In this document: positions 12,258-52,524 of the stretch, piece by piece | How positions within the stretch are numbered: the first letter of the stretch is position 1 | Layout: every line of letters begins with the position of its first letter | NCBI GenBank assembly: GCA_963735255.1 | Contig: CAVTKC010000003.1 | Coordinates: 12,995 to 76,994, forward strand | Length of the DNA stretch: 64,000 bases | Direction of reading: 5' to 3' | Origin: an uncultured Solirubrobacterales bacterium | GTDB lineage: Bacteria > Actinomycetota > Thermoleophilia > Solirubrobacterales > 70-9 | Position numbers and translations under genes: made by a program | The notes under the pieces: generated by a model | What the model was told of the DNA's origin: nothing | Databases searched by the model: none | What the model saw: the letters and a program-made list of their open reading frames with translations, nothing else

Positions 12258-13874
<1,617 letters not shown>

Positions 13875-13891
13875 CGGGTGCTAGCTCCTCC

Positions 13892-14425
13892 TTACGCCGC
13901 GCTCGCGACGGTCTTTCGAAGTTTCTCCAGGCGACTGCGGATGCTCGCGTCCAGGACCATGTTGCCGACCTGCAGGACGATGCCGCCGAGGATGTCGTTG
14001 TCGACGCGACTGGACAGCTCGACCCCCTCGCCGGTCTGGCGTTCGACCTCTTCGCCGATCCGCTTGACCACGGCTTCGTCGAGGTCGACGGCGCTGGTGA
14101 CGGTGACGTCGAGGCGGCGGTTCTCCTTCTTCCAGAGCTCGTCGAACTCGCGGCGGATGCGGAAGATCTCCGGCATCCGGTGCTTCTCGATCAACAGCTC
14201 GAGGAAATTCGTCAACTCCGGCTCAGCGCCGGAGATCGCCCGCCCCAGGCCCTCCCGCTTGTCGGCGGAAGAGAGGTAGGGACTGAACAGGAACACCTGC
14301 AGTTCCTGGTTGCGGTCGACCGCGTCGGCGAACTGACCCAGCTGCGACTGCAGCGAGTCGAGCTTGCCTTTGTCCTTGCCCGCCTCGAAGAGGGCATCGG
14401 CGTATACGTGGGCGACCTCGGGCAT
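13892..14425 (-). CDS. atpH: F1 ATP synthase delta (OSCP) subunit
   Basis: Position between atpF and atpA. VAHVYADALFEAG... and the C-terminal GGIVLQVGNMVLDASIRSRLEKL. Confidence 0.9.
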   Translation of the reverse strand: MPEVAHVYADALFEAGKDKGKLDSLQSQLGQFADAVDRNQELQVFLFSPYLSSADKREGLGRAISGAEPELTNFLELLIEKHRMPEIFRIRREFDELWKKENRRLDVTVTSAVDLDEAVVKRIGEEVERQTGEGVELSSRVDNDILGGIVLQVGNMVLDASIRSRLEKLRKTVASAA

Positions 14426-48519: not shown

Positions 48520-49371
48520 TCACGCCGACTTCAACGTGAACCGCACCCGCGTCCCCGGATGCCCGTCCTCGAGCCAGATCCGCCCCCCGTGCGCTTCGAC
48601 GATCGCCCGGGAGATCGCCAGGCCGAGGCCGGCACCGTCCTCGCCGCGCGAGTCGTCGCCGCGGTAGAAGGCCTCGAAGACCCGCTCGCCGGAGCCGGCG
48701 GGCACTCCCTCACCGTCGTCGGCGACCTCGACCTCGACGTCGCCGCCGGCCGGCCGGGCGCGGACGGTGACGCTGCCGTCGGCGGGGGTGTGGCGAATCG
48801 CGTTCTGGATCAGGTTGAAGAGGACCCGCTGCACCTTCTCGGCGTTGGCCTCTGCCAAAACGTGTCCGGCGGGCAGGTCGGCGGCGATCCGCACACCGCG
48901 CTCGGCCGCCGGCGCCCGCATCGCCGCCACGGTGTCGCCGATCAGGTCGCCGAGCTCGACCTGGCGCATCGTCCAGGAAATGTCCCCGGCCTCGATCCGC
49001 GAGAGCTCGAAGAGGTCGTCGATGAGGTCGCTGAGGACGGCGACGTGGGTGCGGATCTCCTTCAGGTAACGGTCGCGGGTCTCCCCCGTCGCGACCCCGT
49101 CATCGATCGACTCGACCAGCAGCCGCAGCGAGGCGAGCGGCGTGCGCAGGTCGTGCGAGGCCGCCGCGACCAGCTGGCGGCGCGCCTCCTCGATCTGCCG
49201 CCGCGAGCGCTCCTCCATCGCCAGCCGCACCGCCAGCGCCGTCGCCAAGGCGGCGCCGACCGCGGCCAGGACGGCGAGCAGGATCTGGTCGGCGCCCATC
49301 CGGCCGGGCACCGCGACCGCGGCAGCACCGGCGAGGAAAGACGCGACGGCGATGACGAGGGCGCGCTTCAC
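48520..49371 (-). CDS. Sensor histidine kinase, intramembrane-sensing type (two N-terminal TM helices, no extracytoplasmic domain or HAMP)
   Basis: AAASHDLRTPLASL (H-box)...LIQNAIRHTP (N-box)...DDGEGV..GAGLGLAISRAIVEAHGG (G-boxes). Confidence 0.9.
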   Translation of the reverse strand: MKRALVIAVASFLAGAAAVAVPGRMGADQILLAVLAAVGAALATALAVRLAMEERSRRQIEEARRQLVAAASHDLRTPLASLRLLVESIDDGVATGETRDRYLKEIRTHVAVLSDLIDDLFELSRIEAGDISWTMRQVELGDLIGDTVAAMRAPAAERGVRIAADLPAGHVLAEANAEKVQRVLFNLIQNAIRHTPADGSVTVRARPAGGDVEVEVADDGEGVPAGSGERVFEAFYRGDDSRGEDGAGLGLAISRAIVEAHGGRIWLEDGHPGTRVRFTLKSA

Positions 49372-50066
49372 GGCCGCAACCTGTAGCCGACACCCCAGAC
49401 CGTCTCGATGAAGCGCGGTTCGTCGGGGTCGTCGCCGAGCTTGGCGCGGAGCCGGCGGACGTGGACGGTGACGGTGCTGGTGTCGTTGAAGTACGGCTCG
49501 CCCCAGACCGATTCCATCAGCTGGTCGCGGGAGTAGACGCGGCCGGGGTGCTCGGCGAGATAGGCGAGCAGGTCGAACTCGCGCATCGTCAGCGACAGCT
49601 CCGCGCCGTCGAGCAGGACGCGGCGGCTCGCCGGCTCGATCCGCAGCGCCCCGTGGACGATCGGCGGCGCCTCGGAGTCCGGCGGCGAGACCCGGCGCAG
49701 CACGGCGTCGACGCGGGCGACCAGCTCGGCGGGCGAGAACGGCTTGACCACGTAGTCGTCGGCGCCCCGGCGCAGGCCCACCAGCCGGTCGGACTCCTCG
49801 CCACGCGCGGTCAGCAGGATCACCGCGATCCGCGGCCCCGGGCGCTCGTGCAGGCGGCGCATCACCTCGATCCCGTCGATCCCGGGCAGCATCAGGTCGA
49901 GCACCACGAGGTCGGGGTGGTGCTCGTCGGCCAGGCGCAGCGCCTCGGGACCGCTGGCGGCGCGGTGGGTCTCGTAGCCCGCCCGCTCCATGTAGCGGCC
50001 GACGACGTCGAGGATCGTCGGCTCGTCGTCGACGACCAGGACCGCGCCCTTGGAGGAGTCCGCCAT
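49368..50066 (-). CDS. OmpR/PhoB-family response regulator
   Basis: VLVVDDEPTI...DLVVLDLMLPGIDG...DDYVVKPFSP...IETVWGVGYRL. 4-nt overlap with the HK start. Confidence 0.93.
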   Translation of the reverse strand: MADSSKGAVLVVDDEPTILDVVGRYMERAGYETHRAASGPEALRLADEHHPDLVVLDLMLPGIDGIEVMRRLHERPGPRIAVILLTARGEESDRLVGLRRGADDYVVKPFSPAELVARVDAVLRRVSPPDSEAPPIVHGALRIEPASRRVLLDGAELSLTMREFDLLAYLAEHPGRVYSRDQLMESVWGEPYFNDTSTVTVHVRRLRAKLGDDPDEPRFIETVWGVGYRLRP

Positions 50067-50103
50067 CGCCGCGATTGTCGCGCTCGCGCCGACGGACTCG
50101 CGG

Positions 50104-51861
50104 CTAGCCGAAGGTGAAGGCATATCCCTCCACCCCGCTTTCCGGCTTCAGGGTGAGGACGTGCCGGCCAACGGCGGGGAGGTCGACGAGGTTGTAGAGG
50201 CGGTGCGCGGAGACCGTGACGGTGCCGTCCTCGACATCCGCGCCGGCGTCGGCGGCGGCGATCGGCTTGCCGTCCAGCAGCACCTTGACCCGGCGCTCGC
50301 GCCCGGGCGAGCCCAGCACCAGATAGACACGGCGGGCACCGAAGTCGAGGTCGAGCGAGGCGCCGCCGGCCGCGGTCGCCGAGTCGAGCGCGATCCGCCA
50401 GTTGCCGCGGAAGGCGAATTCGCTTTCCCCCAGTCCATCCGGGGCACTGAAGTCGTGGGTTCCCGGCGACAGTTCGGGGTTGGTGAAGCGTTCGGCCCGG
50501 GCGGCGCCGAGGTAGGTCTCCGGCGTGGTCACCGTCGCCGAGGGAGCGACCGCGTGCACGCTCGTCTCCTTCGCCCCGACCTTGTCGCCGGCTTCGGCCA
50601 ACAGCTCGCGGATCACCTTCTCTTTCTCCCCGTATTCGCCCTCGCCGAAGTGGGCGTAGCGGACGCGGCCGCGGGCATCGATGAAGTACTCGGCCGGCCA
50701 GTACTGGTTGCCGTAGGCGTTCCAGGTCGCCTGTTCGTTGTCCTGGGCGACCGGATAGCGGATCTCGTTTTCGCGGATCGCCGCTTCGACGTTGCCGGCT
50801 TCGCGCTCGAAGGGGAACTCCGGCGTGTGGACGCCGACGATCGTCAGCCCGTCTTTGCGGTAGCGCGCGTCCCAGGCCTTCAGGTAGGGAAAGGTGCGGA
50901 TGCAGTTGATGCAGCTGTAGGTCCAGAAGTCGACGAGGACGACGCGGCCGCGCAACGAGGCGAGGCTGAGCGGGCGATCGCCGGGGGTGTTGAACCAGCG
51001 CTCGTTGCCGACGAATTCGGGCGCCTCGCCCAGCACCGGCAGGCCGGAGTTCGGACCGGCGCCGGGGTCCTGAGGGGAGATGCTCGCCGCCCGGGCACCG
51101 ATGCCGTGGGCCGAGCCGCCGCGGATGTCGGCCAGCGCCGTCTGCGCGGCGGCGGTGTCCTCGAGCCCTTCGCTGGGATTGACGAGGAAGCCCGGCAGGT
51201 CGCTGGCGATCCGGTTCTGGAAGCGGATGTCGTAGTTGCCCAGCATCGCCAGGGCGACGACGACCATCACCGCGCCCATCGCGACCTGCAGGCCGACGCC
51301 GCGCCGGGCCAGCGGCCGGACCACGCGGCGGCCGCCGAGCATGAGGAAGTAGAGGACGACCGCGGAGCCAATCCCGTAGCTGAGGGCGACGGCGAGGCGA
51401 CCGGTGCTGAACGACTGCGAAGCCGAGACGGTGATGACCCCGGCCAGGATCGGGCCGGCGCAGGGCGCGTAGACGAGCCCGAGGCTGGCCCCCACGGCGG
51501 TCCCCGACCAGAAACCGTCGCCCTTGCCCTGCGCCACCCCCGCCCGGCTCGCGAACTGACTCATCCAGGCCTCCAGCCGGGCGGCGAGCGGCGGGATCAT
51601 CAACGTGATCCCGAAGCCGAGCAGGACGACGATCGCCAGCTTGCGGAGGAAGTCGTTGGGCAGCCCGAGGGCGGAGATCACGTAGACCAGCGCGACCGTG
51701 GCGAAGGTGAACGACACGGCCAGGCCGGCGACGATCCCGAGCGGCCGCCGGCGGCCGCCGGTCGCGCCCGCTGAGAGCGCGATCGGCAGCACCGGCAGCA
51801 CGCAGGGCGACAGCGCCGTGGCGGCGCCGGCGACAAAGCCGAAGAGGATCAGCAGGGCCAT
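50104..51861 (-). CDS. DipZ-like fusion: CcdA/DsbD-type thiol:disulfide transmembrane transporter, thioredoxin-like (TlpA/redoxin) domain, and a C-terminal beta-rich domain
   Basis: TALSPCVLPVLP and VYAPCAGPIL (the two CcdA Cys motifs). VLVDFWTYSCINCIRTFP (CxxC Trx). C-terminal NWRIALDS...VYLVLG. Same architecture as Mtb DipZ as I recall it. Confidence 0.85.
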   Translation of the reverse strand: MALLILFGFVAGAATALSPCVLPVLPIALSAGATGGRRRPLGIVAGLAVSFTFATVALVYVISALGLPNDFLRKLAIVVLLGFGITLMIPPLAARLEAWMSQFASRAGVAQGKGDGFWSGTAVGASLGLVYAPCAGPILAGVITVSASQSFSTGRLAVALSYGIGSAVVLYFLMLGGRRVVRPLARRGVGLQVAMGAVMVVVALAMLGNYDIRFQNRIASDLPGFLVNPSEGLEDTAAAQTALADIRGGSAHGIGARAASISPQDPGAGPNSGLPVLGEAPEFVGNERWFNTPGDRPLSLASLRGRVVLVDFWTYSCINCIRTFPYLKAWDARYRKDGLTIVGVHTPEFPFEREAGNVEAAIRENEIRYPVAQDNEQATWNAYGNQYWPAEYFIDARGRVRYAHFGEGEYGEKEKVIRELLAEAGDKVGAKETSVHAVAPSATVTTPETYLGAARAERFTNPELSPGTHDFSAPDGLGESEFAFRGNWRIALDSATAAGGASLDLDFGARRVYLVLGSPGRERRVKVLLDGKPIAAADAGADVEDGTVTVSAHRLYNLVDLPAVGRHVLTLKPESGVEGYAFTFG

Positions 51862-51864
51862 GGC

Positions 51865-52035
51865 TCAGTGCATCGCCGGGCCGTGCTCCATCGCGTGGCC
51901 GTGGTGCTTCATCGCGTGGCCGTGGTGCTTCATCGCGTGGCCGTGCTTCTTGGCGGCGCTCGCGCCCGTGCCGCCGAAGGCGACCAGCCCGAAGACCGCC
52001 ACCGCCGTGATCGTCAATGCCCTTCTCAACCGCAT
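51865..52035 (-). CDS. Small secreted His/Met-rich peptide (56 aa), first gene of the DipZ two-component operon; NOT in the supplied ORF track
   Basis: Manual translation: GGAAGGAGcaag-ATG MRLRRALTITAVAVFGLVAFGGTGASA|AKKHGHAMKHHGHAMKHHGHAMEHGPAMH-TGA. It has a signal peptide, three HGHAM(K/E)H repeats plus a degenerate fourth (HGPAMH), a strong RBS, and its stop lies 3 nt before the dipZ ATG. Confidence 0.7.
   Translation of the reverse strand: MRLRRALTITAVAVFGLVAFGGTGASAAKKHGHAMKHHGHAMKHHGHAMEHGPAMH
51889..51948. repeat. 21-nt tandem repeat CATCGCGTGGCCGTGGTGCTT x2 plus a 3-nt-shorter third unit (encodes the HHGHAMK repeats)
   Basis: Read directly from the sequence. In-frame repeats lie inside the small peptide gene. 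Confidence 0.85.
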
Positions 52036-52119
52036 CTTGCTCCTTCCGTGGGAGGTCCGTTAGCCGCCCAAGCTAGAAAGGAAATGTGACGAGGAGAGAA
52101 ACGGCGGCGGCGCGGCGGA

Positions 52120-52524
52120 TCAGTCGGCGATCGGCGAGGCGGTGACCGCGGCGGCGGCCCGCCCGGCGACCTCCGCTGCGCGCCCGACGCTCTCGTCGGC
52201 GCCGAAATGGGCGCAGATCGCCAGCTCGTGCTCGCGCCGCAGCGGCCGCGTCGGGTCGACCGCCGGCGCCGCCTTCAGCGCACCGCCGTCCTCCGCGACC
52301 CAGACCCCGAAGGCCGCGCCCGCGCAGCTGCGCAGCGGCACCGCGACCAGCTTGGTGTTGCGCCAGCGGCCGAGCTTGGCGATCAGCCAGGCCGGCTCGC
52401 CGCTCTCGGCGTCGACGAAGAGTCCCGCGACCTCGCCGACCCCCTTGGCGCCGAGATCCCGGACCTCGGCGCCGATCCAGGCCCGGGCCTCGCCCAGCGA
52501 GGGCATCGCCGCGGCCTCAGCCAT
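52120..52524 (-). CDS. PRC-barrel domain protein
   Basis: GAEVRDLGAKGVGEVAGLFVDAESGEPAWLIAKLGR...VAVPL resembles PRC-barrel proteins. Overlaps the meaB stop by 8 nt. Confidence 0.6.
   Translation of the reverse strand: MAEAAAMPSLGEARAWIGAEVRDLGAKGVGEVAGLFVDAESGEPAWLIAKLGRWRNTKLVAVPLRSCAGAAFGVWVAEDGGALKAAPAVDPTRPLRREHELAICAHFGADESVGRAAEVAGRAAAAVTASPIAD

Follow-up and report, generated by a model that had tools for sequence, protein, structure and literature searches.

A short exported His/Met repeat peptide heading a DipZ two-component operon in Solirubrobacterales: a candidate soft-metal sponge

What is a gene for a protein of 56 residues doing directly in front of the gene for a DipZ-type disulfide reductase, and what could its small product do for the cell? 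The question is raised by positions 51865-52035, minus strand, of a 64,000-nucleotide (nt) stretch of DNA from an uncultured Solirubrobacterales bacterium (contig CAVTKC010000003.1), the whole of which is called the window here. The open reading frame (ORF) at these positions is a true protein-coding gene under purifying selection, and its product belongs to a family of repeat peptides and lipoproteins which has neither a Pfam nor an NCBIfam model and is uncharacterised and undescribed. We propose, at roughly even chances, that the peptide is an extracytoplasmic soft-metal sponge made together with the thiol-repair enzyme DipZ.

The first step is the reality of the gene. In the region concerned, the minus strand of window positions 51600-52300 reads ...cacGGAAGGAGcaagATG..., and the translation of the 56-residue ORF, MRLRRALTITAVAVFGLVAFGGTGASAAKKHGHAMKHHGHAMKHHGHAMEHGPAMH, is exactly that quoted in a first-pass annotation of this DNA, made from the sequence alone. 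The stretch quoted there before the ATG was also read directly: the Shine-Dalgarno-like GGAAGGAG (52040-52047, minus strand) is followed by caag and the ATG at 52035, a 4-nt spacing, and GAAGG(A/G)G is kept at this position among the peptide orthologues. The stop codon TGA (51865-51867, minus strand) is followed by gcc and then by the dipZ ATG, in keeping with the 3-nt gap already described. A word-indexed search returned seven proteins of 55-65 residues built like the window peptide; orthologue DNA was recovered for six, and the comparison of start, frame and stop covers seven orthologous genes. All three features are retained in every one of the seven, with the stop 2-4 nt before the dipZ ATG, and the junctions read in relatives are gaps of 3-4 nt or an overlapping TGATG. 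Every indel in the orthologue alignment is a multiple of three, length changes thus being whole codons, and the variable columns at codon positions 1, 2 and 3 number 26, 18 and 37. The median pairwise ratio of nonsynonymous to synonymous substitution rates (dN/dS) is 0.30 in the peptide frame; the three antisense frames have 0.55, 1.15 and 2.0, the two shifted sense frames 1.3 and 2.7. The ORF itself, and not only its DNA, is therefore conserved in relatives, as the first-pass annotation had supposed, and since both selection and frame conservation favour the minus-strand frame, the plus-strand ORFs at 51698-52063 and 51868-52089 are antisense shadows, a point on which that annotation was also right. 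Its description of the gene as unannotated holds for a track of ORFs of at least 60 residues and fails beyond it, since gene-call sets of NCBI and ENA already contain the exact 56-residue protein; the orthologues have been called by several pipelines (NCBI, ENA, JGI, Logan data). A second copy of the peptide was looked for in the source genome and none was found. The 90%-identity cluster that holds the window peptide has as its representative a 219-residue 'SecD' fragment and contains other SecD-named fragments, which is probably a clustering artefact; the cluster was not used.

It is scarcely credible, on this evidence, that the ORF has no protein function and is either a cis-acting leader setting dipZ expression or a chance antisense-shadow ORF. 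In the window dipZ has no Shine-Dalgarno sequence of its own, whereas peptide-less relatives have GGAAAGG before dipZ, so the translation of dipZ is probably coupled to that of the peptide; this coupling, which the 3-nt gap also suggests, would suit a leader, and genomes of high G+C content are rich in chance ORFs. However, purifying selection acts on the amino-acid sequence in the peptide frame only, the signal peptide and the repeat chemistry are conserved over 146 proteins, and homologues that lie divergent from dipZ cannot act as leaders. A leader peptide of the his-operon type and a precursor of a ribosomally synthesised and post-translationally modified peptide were also considered and rejected, given the absence of biosynthetic or modification genes nearby, the conserved signal peptide and the divergent arrangements.

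The peptide itself falls into two parts. Residues 1-27, MRLRRALTITAVAVFGLVAFGGTGASA (51955-52035, minus strand), form a signal peptide of the classical three-part build which the first-pass annotation had recognised, with an n-region of three Arg, a hydrophobic core (maximal hydropathy 2.55, residues 9-19) and an A-S-A cleavage motif, and this region is conserved across 24 small homologues. Cleavage after A-S-A is predicted by the A-x-A rule, and the translation points to export by the Sec pathway. A twin-arginine translocation (Tat) signal was rejected, since the RR pair is not conserved and homologues carry RK or RQ instead. The predicted mature peptide of 29 residues, AKKHGHAMKHHGHAMKHHGHAMEHGPAMH (51868-51954, minus strand), contains 10 His, 4 Met, 4 Lys and no Cys, with a single Glu; the four Met are as first described, whereas His amounts to 34% (10/29) and not to about 38%, and Met to 14%. 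The in-frame 21-nt tandem repeats that had been noted were recovered by Tandem Repeats Finder as a 21-nt period with 3.0 copies, 97% matches and a score of 119, at 51883-51945 (minus strand), each repeat being one heptad H-G-H-A-M-K-H. The comparison of copy number that the first-pass annotation had proposed for strains, made here between orthologues, reveals that both the number of repeats and the length of the His run differ among orthologues. In one sub-clade (P0010, P0029, P0045, P0060) the middle heptad is replaced by a run of 6-8 consecutive His (GKHHHHHHHGHAM), which shows fast, slippage-type evolution of the repeat region. The tail of the window peptide contains three M-x-H, three H-x-M, three H-x-H, two M-x-x-H and four H-x-x-x-M motifs, and no H-x-x-M. 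AlphaFold2, run on the single sequence, places a low-confidence helix in the mature part (block means of the predicted local distance difference test 59-67, 70.4 for the whole model), and the mature peptide is probably disordered. Compared with Pfam, NCBIfam and the PDB, the window peptide has no family match above threshold, and none in Pfam or NCBIfam even at E<=10; a profile of 79 family members likewise finds nothing above threshold in the three collections. The sole PDB 'matches' of the peptide or the family profile are designed heptad coiled coils at E>=0.2.

The relatives of the peptide place it within a larger family of which the free form is a minor branch. A profile of the peptides and lipoproteins together retrieves at least 146 proteins at E<=1e-3, the close homologues of the window peptide having E values of 3e-22 to 5e-7. 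Among the 121 that were inspected, 97 are lipoproteins and 24 are small non-lipoproteins. In the 97 lipoproteins the mode of the Met-Met spacing is 7, with A or S at -1 and K at +1 (64%), H at +2 (69%), E at +3 (60%) and G at +4 (54%), so that the family repeat is a heptad [A/S]-M-K-H-E-G-x, and lipoprotein lengths step by seven residues (80, 87, 94, 101). The 24 small forms are of two kinds, HGHAMKH, as in the window, and HAMKHH...KKGK. The window peptide has the build of the family, namely a signal peptide followed by heptads with one Met and then K and H. The ectodomains of the lipoproteins are acidic (D 11%, E 9%, K 9%), while the free peptides carry a net positive charge, which reaches +8 in the HAMKHH kind and may retain the peptide on the anionic wall of a monoderm. 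The signal peptide can be aligned with those of the family lipoproteins, its GG-S-G falling on their lipobox GG-C-G; in the DipZ tree, the small forms are nested among lipoprotein-bearing operons, and a lipoprotein operon is the first branch of that clade. From this alignment and this tree, the window peptide looks like a shortened, de-lipidated derivative of the lipoprotein family.

The family is seen almost only in Solirubrobacterales. When a library of 1.84 billion representatives was searched with a profile, the matches came to 91 clusters at 50% identity, and a narrow-alignment contig scan found the HGHAMKH type in five other species representatives of 185,579, all of them metagenome-assembled genomes labelled 'uncultured Solirubrobacterales'; with the small-peptide profile, only three of the order's 301 genomes gave strong matches. 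Among the weakest matches of the library search are lipoproteins from other lineages with His-free GDAMKKD or GDAMKKE heptads (P0138, P0151, P0195, P0210, P0212), which bridge the family and the MXKDX type in composition. Within the genus, sites upstream of dipZ occur in three states: with a small peptide, with a lipoprotein of 82-111 residues that has a GGC lipobox and A-M-K-(H/G/D)-(E/D) repeats, or with neither, in which case a PRC-barrel gene lies about 80 nt from dipZ. In a genome from another family of the order (L017, genome G028), the gene directly upstream of dipZ encodes a PF03640 protein (Lipoprotein_15, 'secreted repeat of unknown function', E 5.7e-14) with a C-Y-G-E-C motif and a short AAMK...GGAM stretch at its N-terminus, and in P0207 AMKKD repeats are fused to a PF03640 domain. 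These cases are hints of a wider link of Met-repeat segments, PF03640 and DipZ.

The next step is the relation of the peptide to its neighbours. A search for HGHAM-repeat peptides beside dipZ in relatives had been proposed, and a family gene does adjoin dipZ in all 21 places examined, with the genes of a response regulator and a histidine kinase following wherever the contig is long enough. Three gene arrangements are found, with same-strand gaps of 3-50 nt or an overlapping TGATG, or, in another family of the order (L034, L059, L070), with the family gene divergent from dipZ; at least four different flanks are seen (MeaB/PRC-barrel, methyltransferase, Na/H exchanger, fatty-acid desaturase). 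Because the linkage holds across arrangements and flanks, there is strong evidence, at the level of gene order, that the peptide or lipoprotein, DipZ, the response regulator and the histidine kinase would form a functional module. At one of the lipoprotein loci (L058), a CopC-CopD fusion gene (12765-14285, plus strand) lies 3.7 kb downstream of the lipoprotein-dipZ-regulator-kinase operon, separated from it by a flavin mononucleotide (FMN) reductase-like gene, tatA and two unknown genes; no other recognised copper gene was seen in the neighbourhood of the modules.

Upstream of the peptide gene lies a promoter/operator-like motif of 34 nt, GTTTCTCTCCTCGTCACATTTCCTTTCTAGCTTG (52069-52102, minus strand), conserved about 35 nt before the ATG. 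The motif (GTTTCTCTCCTCGTCACATTTCCYTYCTAGCKTG) is nearly invariant across genera in 14 of 14 aligned peptide or lipoprotein loci (the window, L002, L005, L009, L014, L053-L056, L058, L060, L061, L068 and L069), including loci with unrelated upstream genes. Within it, TAGCTT at 52075-52070 fits the actinobacterial TANNNT -10 element, and peptide-less loci carry the related GTCATCTCCTCGTAATC just before the Shine-Dalgarno sequence of dipZ, with GTCAT-N6-GTAATC as a direct repeat 11 bp apart. A simple scan for sigma-70 promoters and terminators found no sigma-70 consensus at the motif and nothing relevant. It can be proposed that the motif is probably the operator of the regulator together with a -10 element. 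Since the peptide gene sits between this motif and dipZ, it heads the operon, as the first-pass annotation had claimed. Further sites of the motif were sought across the source genome and none was found; from this single occurrence, control by the two-component system seems to be confined to its own operon.

What, then, could the peptide do? Copper catalyses wrong disulfides in exported proteins, and cutA2 of E. coli is dipZ, the gene of a DsbD-type reductase linked to copper tolerance. According to the sponge model, the 29-residue, Cys-free and cationic H-G-H-A-M-K-H peptide would be released outside the cell after Sec export and the A-S-A cut, and its Met/His repeats (M-x-H, H-x-H, M-x-x-H) would there constitute a multi-site buffer for soft metal ions. 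The best candidate ligands would be Cu(I)/Cu(II), with Ag(I), Zn(II) and Ni(II) also possible; it is the composition of the peptide that suggests metal binding and copper, the metal already favoured in the first-pass annotation. DipZ, made from the same transcript, would export reducing power to its outside thioredoxin domain and keep extracytoplasmic cysteines reduced in the face of metal-catalysed mis-oxidation. The two-component system would turn on its own operon, and the peptide would be an accessory output of the module rather than an obligatory part of its sensor. Since the peptide has no Cys, it is not a DipZ substrate, and that role was rejected. A comparable density of motifs is found in the Met-rich insert of E. 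coli CueO (residues 379-398), whose sequence, when checked, contains five M-x-H in about 20 residues and which binds Cu(I), as cited within PMC5008109. In SilE/PcoE, a disordered sponge of the periplasm, Ag and Cu are bound by His/Met motifs (PMC5008109), the Scs system connects DsbD-type reductases with copper tolerance (PMC10907172), and in copMRS of Synechocystis a Cu-binding protein heads a two-component operon (PMC4335983). Under the A-x-A rule, moreover, the predicted mature N-terminus is A-x-H in 21 of the 24 small homologues, which resembles an amino-terminal Cu(II)/Ni(II)-binding (ATCUN) motif.

A number of observations weigh against the sponge model. The clade of the window peptide itself begins, by the same rule, with A-K-K-H, and because His is at position 4 the ATCUN idea fails for this clade unless the cut is made one residue later. 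No recognised copper gene is present in the operon or in the window neighbourhood, and the 34-nt motif, having no second genomic site, leaves no metal regulon to be read. The heavy-metal subfamily TIGR01387 gives the response regulator 172.8 bits against a cut-off of 279.2; regulator and kinase are both under the heavy-metal subfamily cut-offs and at least as similar to the PhoB, MtrA and WalK types. Once released by a monoderm, a free peptide of 29 residues could be lost by diffusion. Zn or Ni, too, is bound by His-rich stretches of exported proteins, as in ZinT and the ZnuA loops, so that the metal need not be copper. Finally, the most distant GDAMKKD relatives keep Met and are without His, which makes Met the only universally conserved residue, and an oxidant sink would fit this equally well.

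The His content might point to a different ligand. A peptide for the acquisition or storage of Zn(II) or Ni(II), or a haem binder, is very doubtful as an explanation, although a tail of 34% His with H-x-H motifs would suit it and the membrane domain of DipZ is of CcdA type. Some Zn proteins have exported stretches of HGH type, and there are systems in which haem is bound by His-rich repeats; c-type haem has His and Met as its axial ligands, and proteins of CcdA type act in cytochrome c maturation. Against this, Met is conserved in every repeat and is not needed for Zn or Ni, CcdA-only and ResA-like matches lie separately elsewhere in the genomes of relatives and would provide for cytochrome c maturation there, and the module is without a transporter or haem gene.

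The universal Met leads to a further possibility, namely that the peptide is a sacrificial sink similar to MrpX of Azospira and BcrX of Brucella, exported Met-rich peptides whose sacrificial oxidation removes hypochlorite and which MsrPQ, co-transcribed with them under an extracytoplasmic function (ECF) sigma factor, reduces again (PMC4436054, PMC8315932). The exported Met, together with His and Lys, would be oxidised by hypochlorite or reactive species, sparing envelope proteins, and DipZ would either repair cysteines in parallel or feed a methionine sulfoxide reductase which is exported and restores the peptide. We regard this, the main rival of the sponge model, as unlikely. The only curated family with any similarity to ours is TIGR02953, 'pentapeptide MXKDX repeat protein', which 20 of 79 family members match at E<=1 (best 6.5e-6); an HAMKHH-type peptide gives 23.3 bits, the best of five sequences scanned singly. 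None of the family members, however, reaches the cut-off of 41 bits, the window peptide has no match even at E<=10, and the repeat is a heptad with M-K-H and not a pentapeptide M-x-K-D-x. Characterised homologues of TIGR02953 are periplasmic Met-rich hypochlorite scavengers co-transcribed with a reductase and a dedicated sensor (PMC4436054, PMC8315932), but the partner gene here is dipZ and not msrPQ. The window tail has 14% Met and 34% His, whereas MrpX is reported to have 20% Met and 44% charged residues, with His unmentioned (PMC4436054). In favour of a sink, no residue but Met is invariant in every repeat throughout the family and its distant tail, the outside loop of the kinase carries an invariant Met, and Salmonella shows an overlap between its responses to copper and to chlorine stress (PMC13201067). 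The question of regeneration counts the other way: an exported methionine sulfoxide reductase was sought in the source genome and the carriers, and none was found. The source genome (88% complete) has no MsrA or MsrP (PF00174 and PF01625 absent) and only a cytoplasmic MsrB, and in six carriers the MsrA genes have N-termini of cytoplasmic type without signal peptides, with MsrP absent from five of the six. A thioredoxin domain alone is, furthermore, unable to reduce methionine sulfoxide, which counts against recycling. A sink of Met that is not recycled is possible.

To return to the operon in which the proposed sponge peptide is encoded, the neighbouring genes are all recognisable. DipZ (50104-51861, minus strand, 585 residues) has a membrane domain of CcdA/DsbD type, a TlpA/ResA-like thioredoxin domain with C-I-N-C and a C-terminal Thioredoxin_10 domain; its Pfam matches, to DsbD_TM, AhpC-TSA/Redoxin and Thioredoxin_10, are all above the cut-offs (PF02683 4.5e-8, PF00578 4.5e-13, PF08534 1.6e-11, PF17991 1.2e-36), the Cys of the membrane domain lie in SPCVLP and YAPCAGP, and the CxxC of the thioredoxin domain is present, so that the protein has all the features of a DipZ. 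Several relatives match DipZ in two pieces that overlap or adjoin and lie in different frames (G012:C3:180565-182314; G001:C8/C9; G011:C171; G005:C20; G031:C5), which indicates a frameshift, a pseudogene or an assembly error. The response regulator (49368-50123, minus strand) is of OmpR/PhoB type (Response_reg 1e-31, Trans_reg_C 2.7e-32), with PhoB and MtrA as its best NCBIfam similarities, and its true start is likely to be at 50066, 37 nt past the dipZ stop. On the other side, a PRC-barrel protein of 134 residues, recognised by Pfam (52120-52524), lies upstream of the peptide gene. The histidine kinase (48520-49371, minus strand, 283 residues) has Pfam HisKA and HATPase_c domains, HisKA beginning at residue 63. 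Its N-terminus consists of two hydrophobic helices, judged by eye, with an 8-residue outside loop, VPGRMGADQ, between them, and then directly of HisKA; with a loop of no more than about 10 residues and neither an extracytoplasmic nor a HAMP domain, it has the architecture of an intramembrane-sensing kinase. The loop (residues 22-29; window 49285-49308, minus strand) is of the form P-x-x-M-G-x-x-Q, invariant in the 13 different orthologues read, whether the peptide is present or absent, and His is often beside the loop Met. It is conceivable that metal is bound here, or that sensing works through oxidation of a loop residue.

A kinase so poor in outside sequence might borrow its sensor. Accessory lipoproteins are known for other actinobacterial kinases (LpqB-MtrB, CseA-CseC, HbpS-SenS), and the peptide or lipoprotein could by analogy be the third component of the system, an extracytoplasmic ligand-binding antenna which, once loaded with metal or oxidised, would make contact with the loop of the kinase or with DipZ. 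The 8-residue loop without a sensor domain, the constant location of the peptide gene within the same module and the ancestral form, tethered to the membrane next to the kinase, would all suit this role, which we nonetheless consider quite unlikely. Ten congeners keep the dipZ-regulator-kinase genes without a family gene at dipZ, and in nine of the ten no family match in the whole genome exceeds 24 bits, the positive controls scoring 48-70 bits. In the tenth (G010), a family match of 36.7 bits is found at G010:C2:412193-412414, inside a frame of 328 residues far from its peptide-less dipZ operon, and may be a larger protein with an AMK-repeat segment. Most congeners thus keep the module and an identical kinase loop without the peptide anywhere in the genome, and signalling cannot depend on it; in one divergent arrangement, moreover, the kinase is 435 residues long and has room for a sensor domain of its own. 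Because the peptide is absent in most congeners and the kinase loop is identical either way, the peptide is accessory, dispensable to the module, and not a required part of the sensor. This absence from most congeners, the proximity to TIGR02953 and the origin within a lipoprotein family are three aspects that the first-pass annotation missed. A more elaborate scheme can be regarded as a long shot: an undescribed copper circuit of monoderms in which Cu(II) would be caught at a His-rich, ATCUN-like N-terminus, reduced by the outward thioredoxin domain of DipZ and then kept as Cu(I) by the M-x-H heptads, and the P-x-x-M-G-x-x-Q loop of the kinase would sense the loaded or oxidised state. The unmodified ribosomal peptide would then serve as a chalkophore-like buffer, either at the cell surface or released, and be coupled to thiol chemistry.

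If the sponge model is true, the peptide would be a monoderm actinobacterial counterpart of the His/Met sponge proteins of Gram-negative bacteria (SilE, PcoE, CopM), wired to a DipZ-type disulfide reductase and a kinase without a sensor domain. Tethered acidic lipoproteins, free cationic 29-mers and clean absence form a natural series, in which copy number changes by one heptad, and this series would be usable to study soft-metal binding or oxidant scavenging by short unmodified peptides, as well as the role of actinobacterial DipZ. The practical weight is modest, since the hosts are abundant but uncultured soil Solirubrobacterales.

How the system stands beside known ones can be summarised as follows. 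The dense M-x-H of the CueO insert and the MDH-type repeats of CopA/PcoA resemble the peptide in motif chemistry only, as they are segments of large enzymes and the window peptide is a free one. In Salmonella, ScsB/ScsC-CueP (PMC10907172) similarly unites a DsbD-type membrane reductase with an envelope copper-handling protein in one stress response, if the putative metal handling by the window peptide is accepted; CueP, however, is a folded, Cys-containing substrate of the reductase, whereas the window peptide is without Cys. CopM, of the Synechocystis copMRS operon (PMC4335983), is a periplasmic or extracellular copper binder whose gene opens an operon that also encodes a dedicated two-component system, which is the gene order seen here; copper binding is known for CopM only, and CopM is a folded protein of a different family in a system without DipZ, while the window peptide has no Pfam match. 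MrpX and BcrX share with it the form of a small exported repeat peptide with one Met per repeat flanked by Lys or charged residues, co-transcription with a redox-repair system of the envelope and with a dedicated regulator of envelope stress, and a weak profile similarity to part of the window family; their regulator is an ECF sigma/anti-sigma pair, and that of the window module a two-component system. SilE and PcoE, 'molecular sponge' proteins for silver and copper from plasmids of enterobacteria, differ in that no homology to the window peptide is detectable (no Pfam or NCBIfam match), and that SilE has about 120 residues with HxxM/MxxH helix motifs, whereas the window peptide has 29 in strict heptads with M-x-H/H-x-H spacing. 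Their partner is an efflux set of resistance-nodulation-division (RND) and P-type transporters, whereas that of the window peptide is a DipZ reductase in a monoderm actinobacterial host. The likeness lies in an exported, Cys-free protein of short His/Met-rich repeats, expected to be disordered without metal, and in its place as an accessory, non-enzymatic part of envelope defence encoded beside a two-component system. The exported His/Met 'sponge' is thus a kind already known; what is new here is an undescribed family and its invariant partnership with DipZ and a two-component system of intramembrane-sensing type.

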